Shown: positions 3,642-33,570 of the stretch, piece by piece | How positions within the stretch are numbered: position 1 is the stretch's first letter | Layout: each line of letters starts with the position of its first letter | Source of the DNA: a virus | Lineage: Duplodnaviria; Heunggongvirae; Uroviricota; Caudoviricetes | IMG/VR virus record: IMGVR_UViG_2877251553_000008 | Length of the DNA: 52,923 nt | Reading direction: 5' to 3' (one strand) | Position numbers and translations under genes: made by a program | The notes under the pieces: generated by a model | What the model was told of the DNA's origin: nothing | Seen by the model: the letters and a program-made list of their open reading frames with translations, nothing else | Databases searched by the model: none

Positions 3642-3985
3642 TCCCGTTACCTTCCGGGACCAAAATTTGGCTGGTTGCCGGTATCACCGATATGAGAAAT
3701 GGCTTCAACGGCCTGGCGGCAAAGGTGCAGACGACGCTGAAAGACGCTCCGATGTCAGGTCACGTTTTTATCTTCCGTGGGCGTAATGGCAGTCAGGTAA
3801 AGCTCCTCTGGTCTACCGGCGATGGACTGTGTCTGCTGACCAAACGGCTGGAGCGCGGCCGCTTCGCCTGGCCGTCAGCCCGGGATGGCAAAGTGTTCCT
3901 CACACCGGCACAGCTGGCGATGCTCCTTGAAGGTATCGGCTGGCGGCAGCCTAAAAGACTGCTTACGTCCCTGACTATGTTGTAA
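3638..3985 (+). CDS. IS66-family orfB (TnpB)
   Basis: 115-aa ORF MIPLPSGTKIWLVAGITDMRNGFNGLAAKV..., start overlaps the orfA stop (ATGA). Confidence 0.8.
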   Translation: MIPLPSGTKIWLVAGITDMRNGFNGLAAKVQTTLKDAPMSGHVFIFRGRNGSQVKLLWSTGDGLCLLTKRLERGRFAWPSARDGKVFLTPAQLAMLLEGIGWRQPKRLLTSLTML

Positions 3986-4033
3986 GCCTCTTTATCCTGG
4001 TCGACGCTGAATGAGCCTGGTAATATACCCGGT

Positions 4034-5572
4034 ATGAGCAGCTCACTTCCTGACGATATCAATGCACTGAAACGTCTCCTTGCCGAACAGGAGGCGCTGA
4101 ACCGTGCCCTGCTGGAAAAGCTGAACGAGCGTGAACGCGAAATAGACCATCTGCAGGCACAGCTGGATAAGCTGCGCCGGACGAACTTCGGCAGCCGCTC
4201 CGAAAAAGTCTCCCGTCGTATCGCACAGATGGAAGCTGACCTGAAGGCACTTCAGAAAGAAAGTGATACCCTTACCGGTCGGGTTGACGACCCGGCCGTG
4301 CAGCGCCCGCTGCGTCAAACCCGCACCCGCAAACCGTTCCCCGAATCACTCCCCCGCGATGAAAAACGGCTGCTGCCGGCAGCGTCATGCTGCCCGGAAT
4401 GTGGAGGCTCACTGAGCTATCCGGGTGAGGATGCCGCCGAACAGCTGGAGTTGATGCGCAGCGTCTTCCGGGTTATCCGGACTGTACGTGAAAAGCATGC
4501 CTGTACTCAGTGCGATGCCATCGTGCAGGCCCCCGCGCCTTCACGGCCCATCGAGCGGGGTATCGCAGGACCGGGGCTGCTGGCCCGCGTGCTGATCTCA
4601 AAGTATGCAGAGCACACCCCGCTGTACCGCCAGTCTGAAATGTACGGCCGCCAGGGCGTGGAGCTGAGTCGTTCACTGCTGTCGGGCTGGGTGGATGCAT
4701 GCTGCCGGCTACTGTCACCGCTGGAAGAAGCGCTTCAGGACTATGTGCTGACTGACGGTAAGCTCCATGCTGATGACACGCCTGTCCCGGTGCTGTTGCC
4801 AGGCAATAAGAAAACGAAGACCGGGCGGTTATGGACCTACGTTCGTGACGACCGTAACGCCGGGTCAACGCTGGCGCCGGCGGTGTGGTTCGCTTACAGC
4901 CCGGACAGAAAAGGCATCCATCCGCAGACCCATCTTGCGGGGTTCAGTGGTGTACTGCAGGCGGATGCATACGCCGGGTTCAACGAGCTGTACCGGGATG
5001 GCCGGATAACGGAAGCCGCCTGTTGGGCTCACGCCCGCCGTAAAATCCACGATGTGCACGTTCGCACCCCGTCAGCCCTGACGGAGGAAGCGCTGAAACG
5101 GATCGGCGAACTGTACGCCATCGAGGCAGAGATAAGGGGAATGACGGCGGAGCAGCGCCTTGCCGAACGTCAGTTGAAAACGAAACCGCTGCTGAAATCC
5201 CTGGAAAGCTGGCTGCGTGAAAAGATGAAAACCCTGTCGCGACACTCAGAACTGGCGAAAGCGTTCGCATACGCCCTGAACCAGTGGCCGGCGCTGACGT
5301 ACTATGCAGATGATGGCTGGGCTGAGGCGGACAATAACATCGCTGAAAATGCGTTGCGGATGGTCAGTCTGGGCCGCAAAAACTACCTGTTCTTCGGTTC
5401 GGATCATGGAGGAGAGCGGGGAGCGCTGCTGTACAGCCTGATCGGGACGTGCAAACTGAACGGAGTGGAGCCAGAAAGCTACCTCCGCTATGTACTTGAC
5501 GTCATAGCCGACTGGCCGATAAACCGGGTCGGCGAACTGCTCCCCTGGCGCGTAGCACTGCCGACTGAATAA
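4034..5572 (+). CDS. IS66-family transposase (orfC)
   Basis: 512-aa ORF with N-terminal coiled-coil and zinc-finger Cys pairs (CCPECG...CTQC), typical of IS66 TnpC. Confidence 0.85.
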
Positions 5573-29895: not shown

Positions 29896-30090
29896 ATGTC
29901 AACGAAGAACAGAACCCGCAGAACAACAACCCGCAACATCCGCTTTCCTAACCAAATGATTGAACAAATTAACATCGCTCTTGAGCAAAAAGGGTCCGGG
30001 AATTTCTCAGCCTGGGTCATTGAAGCCTGCCGTCGGAGACTAACGTCAGAAAAGAGAGCATATACATCAATCCAAAGTGATGATGAATAA
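29896..30090 (+). CDS. YlcI-like small ribbon-helix-helix protein (DUF3950-type)
   Basis: 64-aa ORF with RHH-like pattern NIRFPNQMIEQINIALEQKGSGNFSAWVIEACRRRL; sits opposite the late genes between cos and the lysis cassette, as ylcI does in DLP12. Confidence 0.6.
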   Translation: MSTKNRTRRTTTRNIRFPNQMIEQINIALEQKGSGNFSAWVIEACRRRLTSEKRAYTSIQSDDE

Positions 30091-30283
30091 ACATCCCGGT
30101 TTCTTCCACCATCGCACCGGACAGGCGACTATGAGGGGACAACGCCGCGCTCCGTTAACGCGGTAAACCCCGGTGTGTATCGTTTTTGATTATCCCCGCA
30201 CACTCGCGCAGAGGAGTCTCCCTGTCGGGCTGCGGTCTCTGTTAATGAGGGAATACAGCGACGATACGGCGCATCAACAAAAC

Positions 30284-30750
30284 TTATTTCAGGCACTGAG
30301 TACGGATATATTCCTGCGCCCCTTCCAGTTGCTTCTGCATCGTCATCAGCCGCTCTCTGAGGGTGAAATAATCCCGTGTAACGGTGTCTGCCAGTCGGGG
30401 CCGGTTGCATTATCCACGCGGGCGGTGCCGGTGGCTTCACGCACGGGACCTGGACAGGTGGCGTTGATACGCAGGCGCTTACGACCAGCGGCAACGTCAG
30501 CGCGAAGAGTTTCATTTTCAGCTCTCGCATCGGCTAATTCCCTCGAGTATTTTGCATCGAGCGCAGCAACATCACGCTGACGCATCTGCATGTCAGTAAT
30601 TGCCGCGTTCGCCAGCTTCAGTTCTCTGACATTTTTGTCGCGCTGGGCTTTGTAGGTAATGGCGTTATCACGGTAATGATTCAGCCCCAGACTAAGCGCA
30701 CCACAGGCCACCAGCAGGGCAATGATGACCACGCACAGTACGCGGTTCAT
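30284..30750 (-). pseudogene. Rz: i-spanin Rz, frameshifted at 30397-30400
   Basis: [40 protein letters not shown]...VDNATGP then frame change; C-terminus [35 protein letters not shown] readable in the third frame. Confidence 0.8.
30346..30530 (-). pseudogene. Rz1: o-spanin Rz1, embedded in Rz in another frame, hit by the same frameshift
   Basis: N-terminus [22 protein letters not shown]...[15 protein letters not shown] in one frame; C-terminus [16 protein letters not shown] in the Rz frame; a single missing C in a C-run reconciles both genes. Confidence 0.7.
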
Positions 30751-30751
30751 T

Positions 30752-30850
30752 TCACCACCAGCGTATCTGACCGATGAAATAACCGGAGGCCATAATCACA
30801 AACACCAGCCAGATAAGAATGAACTTCCAGGTGGATAATTTTTCAGCCAT
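30752..30850 (-). CDS. candidate 32-aa single-pass membrane peptide between endolysin and Rz
   Basis: GGGAGA-N8-ATG start; [32 protein letters not shown]; stop TGA overlaps the Rz ATG (coupling); a longer 72-aa GTG-initiated version runs through a hairpin. Confidence 0.3.
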
Positions 30851-30925
30851 CACTCGAATCTCCCGAATCAGTTTGCTAAAATCAAACACACTTTCTCCTT
30901 TGACTTTTCCAGAGTCAGGAAACAC

Positions 30926-30958
30926 AAAACCCGCTTGCAGCCAACAAACGGGTTTTTT
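30926..30958. terminator. hairpin with T-rich flanks between R and Rz (possible bidirectional terminator)
   Basis: AAAACCCG-cttgcagccaacaaa-CGGGTTTTTT on the plus strand; the reverse complement is likewise followed by TTTTGTGTTT. Confidence 0.35.
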
Positions 30959-31047
30959 ACTTTTATTCACTTAGTTTTTGTCAGTTCGCAGGATTTCGTG
31001 TTATCCGTCCGTGTAAGCAAACCGCATTTTTCAGCAAAATATTCTGC

Positions 31048-31581
31048 TTATCTGTCGATACCCCAGCACGCCAGCGCGCTCTCCTGGTCACGACGGGATA
31101 CCTGACCGTAGCAGTTGTTTGAACGAATACGGCAGTCTCTGCCACCGTCCTTAATCCACCAGCGAATCGCCTCACACGCTCCCCTGCGATCACCTGCATT
31201 AATTCGTTTATAAAACGTCGACGGGAAACACTTACCGGGACCAATGTTGTACGGACAGAATGACGCGATCCCCGCTTTCTGGGGTTCGCTCAATGGCACT
31301 CTGATGTTTTTCTCCACCCATGCCAGCGCCTTATCACGCTCAATGGCGTTAACCCGGTCGCATTTTTCCTTCGACAACTTCATGCCCGGAACGACAGGTT
31401 TGCCATCCACCAGGATGGCACCGCGGCAGATGGTCCAGATACCCGCGCCATCACGGTATGCCGTGGTGTGGTTACCTTCCTTTTCATCCAGAAACTGGTC
31501 GAGAATGTCAGGCGCAGGCGCACCAGCGGCAATCAGCGCCAGAACGGCAGCCGACAGGCCGTATTTGATTTTGGTGTTCAT
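31048..31581 (-). CDS. R: SAR endolysin (phage lysozyme, GH24-type) R
   Basis: 177-aa ORF with N-terminal signal-anchor-release segment (YGLSAAVLALIAAGAPA) followed by a lysozyme domain (EGNHTTAYRDGAGIWTICRG...). Confidence 0.85.
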   Translation of the reverse strand: MNTKIKYGLSAAVLALIAAGAPAPDILDQFLDEKEGNHTTAYRDGAGIWTICRGAILVDGKPVVPGMKLSKEKCDRVNAIERDKALAWVEKNIRVPLSEPQKAGIASFCPYNIGPGKCFPSTFYKRINAGDRRGACEAIRWWIKDGGRDCRIRSNNCYGQVSRRDQESALACWGIDR

Positions 31582-31784
31582 GGATATATTAAATATTCAG
31601 CCGCTGTCCCTGGCCCACTAAATACGCACTTTAAGATAAGTCAGCCCCGGATGAAGCCAGTAAGCCGGCACTTTTTTAAAGGGTGGAGTATTAAAATCAC
31701 GAAGAAGAGCCTCCCGCACAATTGCATCCGGTAATGCTGCCAACTTACTGATTTAGTGTATGATGGTGATTTTAAGGTGCTTGC

Positions 31785-32060
31785 GTGGCTTCCATTTCCA
31801 TCAGATGTCCTTCCTGCTCCGCTACTGAAGGCGTGGTGCGTAACGGCAAAAGCACTGCCGGACATCAGCGCTATCTCTGCTCTCATTGCCGTAAAACATG
31901 GCAACTACAGTTCACTTACACCGCCTCTCAGCCCGGTACGCACCAGAAAATCATTGATATGGCCATGAATGGCGTCGGATGTCGCGCCAGTGCACGCATT
32001 ATGGGCGTTGGCCTCAACACGGTTTTACGTCACTTAAAAAACTCAGGCCGCAGTCGGTAA
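31785..32060 (+). CDS. insA: IS1 InsA
   Basis: 91-aa [43 protein letters not shown]... Confidence 0.95.
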
Positions 32061-32482
32061 CCTCGCGCATACAACCGGGCAGTGATGTGATTGTCTGCGC
32101 TGAAATGGACGAACAGTGGGGCTACGTCGGTGCTAAATCACGTCAGCGCTGGCTGTTTTACGCGTATGACAGGATACGGAGGACGGTTGTGGCGCACGTC
32201 TTCGGTGAACGCACTCTGGCCACACTGGAGCGTCTTCTGAGCCTGCTGTCGGCCTTTGAGGTCGTGGTATGGATGACGGATGGCTGGCCGCTGTATGAAT
32301 CACGCCTGAAGGGAAAGCTGCACGTTATCAGCAAGCGTTACACTCAGCGCATTGAGCGACATAATCTGAATCTGAGACAACATCTGGCAAGGCTGGGACG
32401 GAAGTCACTGTCGTTCTCAAAATCGGTGGAGCTGCATGACAAGGTCATCGGGCATTATCTGAACATAAAACACTATCAGTAA
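31979..32482 (+). CDS. insB: IS1 InsB
   Basis: 167-aa ORF ...[37 protein letters not shown]...HYLNIKHYQ. Confidence 0.9.
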
Positions 32483-33205
32483 GTTGGAGTCATTACCATT
32501 GCATCCTTATCAGCACCACTGGCCAGCGCTTCAATCTCAGCAGCTATCTGCAGATATCCCATGCAACGACCAATGCACTTCATCAGCCCCTGCTTTTTAT
32601 TGTTCTTCAGGTAATCAATGGCAAATTCAATGAGCGCCTCACTATGCTGGTGCGATGGCGGTGTTAATTTCCCATTTTCTGAGATGGTTATTTTCCCGCC
32701 ATCTCCGTATACAACAAAGGATGGCCGGTTACACTCCCATTCCTGATCTTTATCAGGTGCAGACGCAATAAAATAACGTTTATTTCCTTCCTCTCCGGCA
32801 CTTTTAACCGTAATGGAGTACTCAGACTGCAGACAAGACGCCTCTTTTTCTGACCGCAGTGTTGACGGCGGCATCTTCAGAGAACAAGTAATTATTCCCG
32901 GTAGTTTTCCTCTGTAGGTTATCAACACATCCTGCGCCTCTAAAATGATGGGGCGCTTTTCCTGCAACGGTTCGTTCCCTTCACATAACCCGGCAGCAAC
33001 ATCCATGAAAAACTGCTTCGCCTGCTTTTTCGCCTCCGCTTCGTAAAACTCCAGCTTGGCACCTTCAGTACGGTCAAGACTAATCGCCACATATGGCAAC
33101 AACAGTGACGGATACCCACCAATTTCCAGTGCCACAGTAACAGTAATCTTATCCGGGTAATTATTTATCCCTTTAACAACCAGTTCGTATTTTTTCTTCA
33201 TCACT

Positions 33206-33420
33206 TTACTCTCCCCGTACAGCCTTACGACGGTCCTCTCTGATTTTGAAATACAGGTTAGTCAGATATGTCAGCAGCCCAAACAGCAGACTCCCAGCAC
33301 GCCTATTGCCGCCCACTGAGACGGGGAAACCCTGTCCAGCAACTGCAGGAACCAGTAGCCCGTTCCCACCGCTGACGTGGTGTATGACACACCTGTTGTG
33401 ATTTTTTCCATCTGGTACAT
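33206..33420 (-). pseudogene. S: S21-like pinholin/antiholin with dual-start motif, frameshifted at 33293-33295
   Basis: [43 protein letters not shown] then frame change; remaining [28 protein letters not shown] readable in the adjacent frame; Met1 and Met4 give holin/antiholin starts. Confidence 0.8.
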
Positions 33421-33570
33421 ACCCCGTCTCCCGTTATCCGGAAGCTGACAACAATAAAAAAAGCCACCAGTTAAGTACTGATGGCTCTGATAACTCATGC
33501 AGGCATCTCAGACGACCCACTGACACTACCGGTGAGTTTAACGATACCTTCCATTTGACTGGCTCACTTT

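Follow-up and report, generated by a model that had tools for sequence, protein, structure and literature searches.

In a 52,923-nucleotide (nt) stretch of Caudoviricetes DNA (IMG/VR record IMGVR_UViG_2877251553_000008; hereafter the window, to whose full length all coordinates refer), a lambdoid prophage carries, among its minus-strand late genes, a spacer between the endolysin gene R and the i-spanin gene Rz that holds a mobile cassette made of a GC-rich hairpin and a 45-codon gene for a small membrane peptide. We favor, with slightly better than even confidence, the idea that this cassette encodes an antisense-controlled, toxin-like membrane peptide that is made from the phage late transcript, in an arrangement resembling a type I toxin-antitoxin pair. 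An initial annotation of the same DNA had pointed to an unexplained 0.3-kb spacer at this place; its size is 297 nt, from 31047 to 30751, between R (31581-31048) and Rz (30750). That reading overlooked the longer, 45-residue frame as well as the antisense signals, and did not see that hairpin and open reading frame (ORF) form a single mobile unit. The features of the cassette are:

30752..30889, minus strand: small ORF of 45 amino acids, GTG at 30889 to TGA at 30754-30752; amphipathic N-terminal helix and one transmembrane (TM) helix; PHROG 6632
30752..30850, minus strand: internal in-frame start of the 32-residue core, ATG at 30850 with GGGAG at 30864-30860; possible second product
30926..30958, both strands: GC-rich hairpin with A-tract and T-tract flanks, resembling a bidirectional intrinsic terminator; 36 nt before the ORF in the sense direction
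30894..30922, minus strand: second small hairpin, in which the U-tract tail UUUCCU and GACU pair with AGUC and the Shine-Dalgarno (SD) sequence AGGAGA
30854..30882, plus strand: predicted antisense promoter in codons 3-13 of the ORF; -35 TCGAAT at 30854-30859, 17-nt spacer, extended -10 TGcTAAAAT at 30874-30882
30888..30962, plus strand: predicted cis-antisense RNA of about 72 nt, starting opposite the GTG, containing the anti-SD CUCCUU and ending at the hairpin and a U-run

A conserved 45-codon gene between R and Rz

The conserved frame of the spacer starts at GTG 30889, with an SD (AAGGAG, 30900-30895) 5 nt upstream. The ORF had first been read as a 32-residue frame from ATG 30850; the peptide sequence quoted for it is correct and this ATG does have its own ribosome-binding site (RBS; GGGAG, 30864-30860), but it is an invariant internal start, codon 14 of a longer frame. 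The Prokaryotic Genome Annotation Pipeline (PGAP), the CP-1639 record and PHROG 6632 all take the 45-residue form from the GTG, and the match to phrog_6632, a family of unknown function, places residues 1-45 on profile positions 1-45 of 45 (E = 1.2e-29); a Pantoea-type member likewise matches phrog_6632. The protein is annotated by PGAP in some genomes (WP_000459345.1) and in CP-1639 as a 'putative bacteriophage protein' (CAH23245.1), the H-19B record leaves the gap empty, and most PGAP or GenBank records give the ORF no annotation or call it 'hypothetical'.

Comparison with relatives showed that this small ORF is a real gene. Its protein is identical in 79/79 Escherichia coli-type loci of IMG/VR, and the ORF keeps its length of 45 codons across genera. 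A Nei-Gojobori analysis of 13 diverse members over codons 15-44 gave a proportion of synonymous differences (pS) of 0.76 and of nonsynonymous differences (pN) of 0.24, with pairwise omega values of 0.08-0.27: the core of the ORF is under purifying selection, with pN/pS about 0.3 and synonymous sites that are saturated. A profile search against 1.84 billion representative proteins returned only 40 clusters, and by this measure the family is small but real. We also considered that the spacer might be non-coding, or a decayed known gene, with an ORF that is there by chance, as its shortness and its absence from most PGAP/GenBank records might suggest. The comparative data refute this explanation, to which we give next to no weight: the substitutions follow a third-position pattern with omega of 0.1-0.3, the 45-codon length holds across genera, the PHROG profile is matched over its full length, and the relatives all show an intact, selected ORF and not the degenerate fragment of a known gene that the initial annotation had allowed for.

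The product is predicted, from hydropathy and the positive-inside rule, to be a single-pass inner-membrane peptide with its N terminus in the cytoplasm, as five K/R residues lie on the N-terminal side of the TM helix versus one on the C-terminal side. The one TM helix proposed earlier was supported (best 19-mer at residues 24-42, mean Kyte-Doolittle hydropathy of 2.13), and only three residues, RWW, lie beyond it. AlphaFold2 modeled a helix at 4-17, a kink and a helix at 20-44, with a predicted local distance difference test score (pLDDT) of 86. Conservation is highest in the N-terminal helix and where the TM segment begins (SKxIRExRxM..L..W(K/R)F), and distant homologs keep this motif followed by the TM segment.

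Both starts bear signs of conservation. A GTG or TTG start with an upstream SD is kept in every 45-codon member; Met14 is invariant, and Arg9 is always encoded by a rare codon, CGG or AGG, followed by GAG, which creates GGGAG 9 nt before the internal ATG. In a Serratia locus (L028), the 32-residue core stands alone, directly after the gpV stop codon. Judging from these signals, it is plausible that both a 45-residue and a 32-residue product are made, and the alignments indicate that the 32-residue peptide is the conserved core and not the whole gene. At the other end, the ORF stop had been thought to overlap the Rz start, but the TGA (30754-30752) lies one base before ATG 30750 (TGAaATG); it is positioned for translational coupling, and ribosomes probably read on into Rz.

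One variant of the family is very common in E. coli prophages: found at the loci of the L110 type (43/80 matches), it has a TTG start and the same N-terminal 23 residues together with the antisense motif described below, followed by a different TM segment and C terminus (...WSIPFLWVVSQLIVAIKG, 44 residues); some copies are prematurely stopped at 37 residues.

A terminator-like hairpin and a predicted antisense RNA

The hairpin noticed earlier at 30926-30958 held up when relatives were compared. In the minus-strand RNA it forms 13 pairs followed by UUUUGUGUUU, as found by a terminator scan, while on the plus strand the hairpin is followed by TTTTTTACTTTT. RNAalifold called 12 pairs, with compensatory changes at 7/12 on the sense alignment and at 8/12 on the antisense alignment, and 52 distinct leaders carry the hairpin at 25-38 nt before the start. 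Over 401 nt, the window differs from its nearest relative by two changes only, a C-to-A substitution and a G deletion, which fall on opposite stem positions. By these comparisons, the hairpin is more than a chance structure.

The second small hairpin is present in the minimum-free-energy folds of the window and of 12/14 relatives, among which its inner stems vary (TGACT/AGTCA, CCTTG/CAAGG, CGTTA/TAACG). Taken singly, it was not significant against shuffled sequences (z from -0.3 to -2.9). Strict covariation of an SD-sequestering hairpin was rejected: the registers differ by lineage, RNAalifold made no call and the z-scores are weak. Pairing of the SD by this second structure is suggestive only.

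The first codons of the gene also carry, on the opposite strand, what looks like a promoter. Its -10 stretch, TGCTAAAAT, overlies the sense codons GAT TTT AGC, and GAT-TTT-AGC-AAA reads on the opposite strand as TTTGCTAAAATC, an extended -10 of the form TGnTAAAAT with a weak -35 (TCGAAT or TCGCAA) 17 nt upstream. In codons 2-13, pS falls to 0.32 versus 0.76 in the rest, with Asp3 (GAT), Ser5 (AGC) and Arg12 (CGA) invariant, and TGnTA(A/T/G)(A)AT occurs at the identical position in 14/14 diverse members. In the Azoarcus member, a change of Ser to Ile (AGC to ATC) alters the free 'n' only. Distant homologs with other residues or a high GC content keep the motif as well, with AAT TCT AGC giving TGCTAGAAT, GAT CTT AGC AAG giving TGCTAAGAT and CAC ATT AGC giving TGCTAATGT; L229 and L234 hold on to it despite GC pressure, L027 and L230 despite amino-acid replacements. 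Overall, TGnTAnnnT is found within the first ten codons of 18/21 members versus 1.9-2.8 expected under synonymous recoding, and 0/200,000 simulations reached 18, although the members are related, so that the recoding simulation overstates the significance.

A transcript from this promoter would begin at 30888-30890 and end near 30957-30964, a geometry derived from the promoter and terminator positions. Its predicted length is 74-80 nt in all relatives, and it is predicted to fold into two hairpins (-18.6 kcal/mol, z = -3.3). We regard this antisense RNA as a well-supported prediction, and the opposite strand probably gives rise to an RNA that would mask the RBS of the peptide. Such an RNA would account for the codon constraints, for the conservation of the 5' A-tract, for the fixed distance between hairpin and start and for the co-mobility of hairpin and ORF. 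Two other candidates for an antisense promoter were discarded: a promoter-like plus-strand site picked up by a scan (30767-30796, CTGACC-18-CATAAT) proved unconserved in Salmonella and E. fergusonii, and the Leu18 TTA codon, if taken for part of an antisense -10 (nnTAAT), does not supply the key A at position 2 in the majority of members.

Another way to explain these observations is that the cassette is a plain late-gene moron without any antisense RNA, the hairpin being a leaky terminator, a stabilizer or a processing site of the sense mRNA, and the conservation of codons 2-13 resulting from the internal SD of Met14 and from an AU-rich initiation region. A number of findings speak for this explanation and weigh against antisense control. 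In 45/52 leaders, G-U pairs on the sense strand give the sense-RNA form of the hairpin the greater stability, so that the hairpin may mainly serve the sense transcript. The internal GGGAG built from rare Arg codons is a selected sense-strand signal in the same stretch, and the synonymous constraint on codons 2-13 could come from this SD and from translation-initiation needs. The -35 is weak (3/6), which leaves the promoter strength to the extended -10. No Rfam family was found at the cassette (only noise at E <= 10 for the window and at the gathering threshold for 14 related loci), nor any published small RNA (sRNA) at the site. Serratia L028 retains the core without the hairpin or the N-terminal codons; the peptide can thus occur on its own, apart from the antisense unit.

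Other points also count against our reading. Among eight very distant homologs, the promoter motif is absent in 3/8 and the hairpin in 2/8. Pfam and NCBIfam searches at E <= 1 gave only noise and matched the peptide to no known toxin family, and no PADLOC defense model was matched. Finally, unlike at canonical type I loci, a scan detected no conserved sense promoter, either in the 25-38 nt gap between hairpin and start or upstream of the hairpin; the toxin-like gene thus has no autonomous promoter and would be expressed from the surrounding operon.

Still, a plain moron leaves several features unexplained. Neither AU-richness nor an SD would require codon 5 to end invariably in C (AGC or ATC, never AGT), and the retention of TGnTAnnAT despite amino-acid change, its presence in 18 members where 2-3 are expected, and the 5' A-tract find no explanation either. 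We therefore consider the plain moron unlikely, if worth taking seriously, and keep antisense control as the preferred reading.

A promoterless mobile unit of late operons

Hairpin and ORF constitute one promoterless mobile unit of Enterobacterales late operons, which is not specific to lysis genes. The cassette covers about 230 nt (roughly 30752-30965) behind about 90 nt of ordinary R 3' untranslated region. In every lineage, the A-tract, GC-rich hairpin, T-tract, SD, GTG/TTG start and ORF come in the same order; the shared sequence sets in some 10 nt ahead of the hairpin, with no homology farther upstream. The cassette is always oriented as the surrounding late genes. In the window, its surroundings are:

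31048..31581, minus strand: R, SAR-type (signal-anchor-release) phage lysozyme of 177 amino acids, upstream border of the spacer; PF00959 (1.3e-23), phrog_7 endolysin
30960..31047, minus strand: R 3' untranslated stretch, outside the mobile cassette; 87-90% identity with 933W/Stx-type (Shiga toxin) phages
30346..30750, minus strand: Rz (i-spanin), ATG at 30750, downstream border; PF03245, with an Rz1 match at the C terminus, frameshifted into the Rz1 frame

The homologous genes of K-12 Qin, rrrQ and rzpQ, overlap with no spacer between them, and the R gene of the window is colinear and homologous with rrrQ as far as its last two codons. Because rrrQ and rzpQ overlap there, the spacer is an insertion relative to the Qin arrangement. 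In the annotated junctions of 933W/Stx-type phages, ant occupies the site where the window has the cassette, and most Stx2a phages aligned only over query positions 1-86 or 1-94 in a distant blastn search.

The 401-nt junction was found at >=80% coverage in 871/5426 complete E. coli genomes (about 16%) and in 39 phage records, mostly of Stx1a/Stx2 phages; the Stx1 phage H-19B carries the cassette. Protein and DNA searches extended the 45-codon homologs to Salmonella, E. fergusonii, Citrobacter, Edwardsiella, Yersinia, Trabulsiella, Izhakiella, Sodalis, Brenneria, Pantoea and Symbiopectobacterium, and to an Azoarcus metagenome-assembled genome (48% identity).

A survey of R-Rz junctions in relatives had been suggested as a check, and the cassette lies directly against Rz in lysis cassettes of several unrelated kinds, from Escherichia, Salmonella, Citrobacter and Edwardsiella. 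It follows five endolysin types (a SAR lysozyme, a 162-residue PF00959 lysozyme beside holin_2_3, a GH19 enzyme, a GH108 enzyme and a 138-residue enzyme); on its other side come PF03245, DUF2514 or separated spanins, mostly across a TGAnATG junction, and at least six types of lysis cassette have it in front of Rz. However, a lysis-specific cassette was rejected when the survey of contexts was made genome-wide, as baseplate, tail and head operons hold it too: it lies between the baseplate spike gene gpV and W in Yersinia, Pantoea and Serratia, after DUF2612, S74 tail-fiber and LPD38 genes, between internal-virion genes of the T7-gp14-like and SLT types, and amid head genes. Some distant members stand alone among type II toxin-antitoxin modules (ParE, YafQ/RelB, HicB or PrlF/YhaV).

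This distribution bears on the possibility that the peptide is a dedicated lysis protein, either holin/antiholin-like or modulating a spanin or pinholin, for instance with its 45- and 32-residue forms as an effector-inhibitor pair that tunes lysis timing or Rz function. Its position directly upstream of the i-spanin gene, with a conserved TGAnATG, in at least six lysis cassettes fits such a role, as do the unrelated small TM ORFs found at the same junction (phrog_4906, 4493/1115 and 12997, up to four in a row) and the two conserved starts, each with an SD, the first beside a stem-loop that recalls the sdi structure of lambda S. Against it, the same cassette sits in baseplate, tail-fiber, internal-virion and head operons and among toxin-antitoxin genes, and the peptide has no holin-type charged C-terminal tail and no similarity to a holin or spanin family. 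We find this explanation improbable; it concerns the function of the peptide and is compatible with antisense control.

The cassette could also be a moron expressed in the lysogen from its own promoter, encoding a membrane protein for superinfection exclusion or host fitness, and small inner-membrane morons such as HK97 gp15 do mediate exclusion. Like a moron, it separates genes that lie side by side in relatives (rrrQ/rzpQ in Qin; gpV/W in Pantoea, Yersinia and Serratia), and it is intact in a prophage with a broken holin and Rz and an IS1. Classical morons, reportedly as defined by Juhala et al. in 2000, have their own promoter upstream and a terminator downstream of the gene. Here, the terminator-like hairpin is upstream, directly before the ORF in the sense direction, no sense promoter was found in the 25-38 nt between the two, nothing is conserved upstream of the hairpin and PADLOC gave no match. 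An A-rich stretch in or upstream of the hairpin does provide -10-like hexamers in some members, but none is conserved, and this candidate sense promoter was set aside. Expression in the lysogen from an own promoter is, in our judgment, even more improbable than a dedicated lysis role. The reading that we retain remains that of a peptide made from the late transcript under antisense control.

The R-Rz junction of lambdoid phages is a hot spot for tiny single-TM ORFs from several unrelated PHROGs, as seen at L110 (IMG/VR), L013 (PhiR12_1), L014 (GER2), L015/L016 (933W-type) and L238-L240 (Sakai Sp9/10/12). The PHROGs of tiny ORFs seen at this junction are 6632, 4906, 4493/1115 and 12997, with up to four consecutive ORFs before Rz. 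In the 933W type, an ORF of 43-48 residues (MISDKLITL...) lies between ant and Rz and is often unannotated; its Sakai copies are ECs_5722, ECs_1966 and ECs_5732. Three unrelated peptide families end in (R/K)WW-TGAnATG before Rz. At about 3860-4140 of an E. fergusonii locus (L009), the 13-nt junction TGGTGGTGATATG (...WW stop, 1 nt, ATG) occurs twice, once after a 35-residue phrog_12997 ORF upstream of the hairpin and once after the 45-residue ORF, and it looks like a shared microhomology for the exchange of small-ORF cassettes. In cassette-bearing phages of Salmonella and Citrobacter (L005, L019; 400-2200), tRNA genes and sRNAs of the STnc100 family (RF02076, up to 89.6 bits) precede the holin.

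The lysis cassette of the window prophage is itself defective. Compared with E. coli 09-02E, one nucleotide is missing from a C-run near 30400, which swaps the frames of Rz (30346-30750) and Rz1 (30129-30530), such that the Rz ORF ends with the Rz1 tail, the Rz1 ORF extends to 133 residues and both spanin genes are broken. The pinholin gene (33271-33498, minus strand) is truncated, and between this holin remnant and R lie a 242-residue ORF of unknown function (32476-33204, minus strand) and an IS1 copy (about 31735-32500; insA/insB at 31785-32482). The cassette is probably carried as a passenger in this prophage. A small YnfO/YlcI-like gene (DUF3950-type; 29896-30090, plus strand) lies between Rz and the terminase small subunit and is convergent with Rz.

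Known systems and a possible role in the late phase of infection

We compared the cassette with phage and host systems that share part of its layout. The P22 sar RNA, of about 69 nt, is a phage antisense RNA whose promoter lies inside an operon and which is complementary to the RBS of the neighboring gene ant; P22 Ant is a soluble antirepressor from the immI region, and neither a membrane peptide nor a mobile cassette or late-operon gene. Dual-start holins (lambda S107/S105 with its sdi stem-loop; S21) have two in-frame starts with their own SDs and a stem-loop by the first SD. Their genes precede that of the endolysin, the proteins mostly span the membrane with 2-3 TM helices and end in a charged C-terminal tail, and 2-3 codons separate the two starts. 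Here, in contrast, the starts are 13 codons apart, there is no homology and the cassette also occurs outside lysis cassettes; the peptide ends in RWW, has no holin match in Pfam or PHROG, is encoded downstream of R and is found in tail and head operons. It does not resemble a spanin either, with its 3 residues past the TM helix and no lipobox, and the true Rz/Rz1 follow at 30750. The PHROGs 4906, 4493/1115 and 12997 are unrelated small TM ORFs of the same R-Rz junction, all of 'unknown function' like 6632.

The layout recalls that of SymE/SymR and of Hok/Sok. SymR is a 77-nt antisense RNA with a promoter inside the symE ORF and covers the 5' end and RBS of its target (PMC1891008); the RNA predicted here would be of similar length (72-80 nt), with a promoter within codons 3-13 and a 5' end facing the start codon. 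Unlike the 45-residue membrane peptide of this promoterless late-operon cassette, SymE is a cytosolic protein of 113 residues with its own LexA-controlled promoter, and the two show no sequence similarity. The hokW-sokW type I pair belongs to the lambdoid Stx2 prophage Sp5, where HokW is induced with the prophage, speeds lysis and doubles phage release (PMC8621323). As in Hok/Sok, a small inner-membrane peptide and an antisense RNA, here a predicted one, would be carried by a lambdoid prophage, and Hok, Ldr and TisB are likewise small membrane peptides. The cassette differs from Hok/Sok in having no Hok_Gef Pfam match, no Sok/hok Rfam match, no mok-like overlapping frame and no autonomous toxin promoter, and in its topology, with a polar N-terminal helix and a TM helix followed only by RWW. 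Neither toxin (Pfam/NCBIfam) nor RNA (Rfam) sequence searches assigned it to Hok/Gef, Ldr, TisB, Ibs, ShoB or ZorO. With 45 residues and one TM helix, the product is within the size range of type I toxins (small membrane proteins under about 60 residues); lacking a toxin promoter of its own, the cassette has a working likeness to a type I or SymR-like pair and we do not file it as one.

Published prophage sRNAs were rejected as candidates for this locus, since EcOnc/AsxR/AgvB lie 3' of pR' and stx, Pas and StxS upstream of the holin, and HnrS downstream of Rz. HnrS (EcOnc10-12) is a 66-nt Hfq-dependent prophage sRNA of enterohemorrhagic E. coli (EHEC) that is antisense to late genes, has an intrinsic terminator and represses hha in trans (PMC13502914); its locus and sequence differ from those of the RNA predicted here. 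The window has its own stretch downstream of Rz (30093-30283) that is 94% identical to the Sakai Sp9 region holding EcOnc12 = HnrS; it probably carries a copy of hnrS, antisense to late genes, with the Hfq-peak sequence on the plus strand at about 30162-30209, ~680 nt from the predicted antisense RNA. Sakai Sp9, Sp10 and Sp12 have an R-ant-48aa-Rz junction in place of the cassette, and because of this difference the Sakai differential RNA sequencing data are uninformative for the locus. Searches of the literature and of supplements found no mention of the peptide sequence, of WP_000459345, of phrog_6632 or of an RNA at the site, an EHEC ribosome-profiling small-gene supplement gave no match, and neither the PHROG 6632 entry nor any paper found recorded linked hairpin or antisense signals. 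The arrangement of a membrane peptide guarded by an antisense RNA appears to be undescribed so far.

Considering these signals together, we propose the following scheme. The late (minus) strand encodes the 45-residue inner-membrane peptide, to be translated from a GTG behind a strong SD, and the internal SD and ATG could add the 32-residue core. Because the cassette has no sense promoter, the late transcript would be the sole source of the peptide, here the Q-antiterminated transcript from pR' reading through the hairpin. The extended -10 in codons 3-6 would fire an RNA of about 72 nt that is fully complementary to the SD and 5' leader and ends at the hairpin. In a lysogen, or when read-through is weak, this RNA would block translation of the peptide and probably trigger cleavage of the message, so that the sense terminator, the GTG start and the antisense RNA may jointly keep a potentially membrane-damaging peptide silent. 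Massive late transcription would then outrun the antisense RNA, and the peptide would accumulate in the inner membrane late in infection. The comparisons show that the gene is real and under selection, that the cassette is mobile and that the hairpin and the antisense promoter motif are conserved; from these we infer that the RNA exists and represses translation, that the peptide may be toxic and that it may alter when lysis occurs. Of the two functions once put forward for the peptide, a lysis regulator or a small toxin-like peptide, the second gains support, because a conserved and selected membrane peptide is found with a non-ATG start and with conserved antisense signals, a predicted promoter and a terminator, whose RNA would cover its RBS; for a lysis regulator the evidence points both ways, as the cassette abuts Rz in unrelated lysis cassettes and also sits in operons far from lysis genes.

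More tentatively, and at a level of confidence that stays below even, the cassettes may belong to a widespread, so far unrecognized promoterless family of type I-like phage elements, in which a constitutive antisense RNA with its promoter in the first toxin codons would set a threshold jointly with the bidirectional terminator, and in which the peptide, made only when late transcription peaks, would help collapse the membrane and thereby affect the timing of lysis and of toxin release, for example in H-19B. Lambdoid lysis cassettes are among the best-studied gene sets, and yet this cassette is unannotated or 'hypothetical' in about 16% of complete E. coli genomes. If our reading is true, it would represent a new toxin family and a new type I design, in which a promoterless toxin rides a phage late operon, and it would offer a concrete candidate for the fine control of lysis timing and of phage and Shiga-toxin release. 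It would also show the R-Rz junction to be a hot spot for the swapping of several families of tiny membrane proteins.

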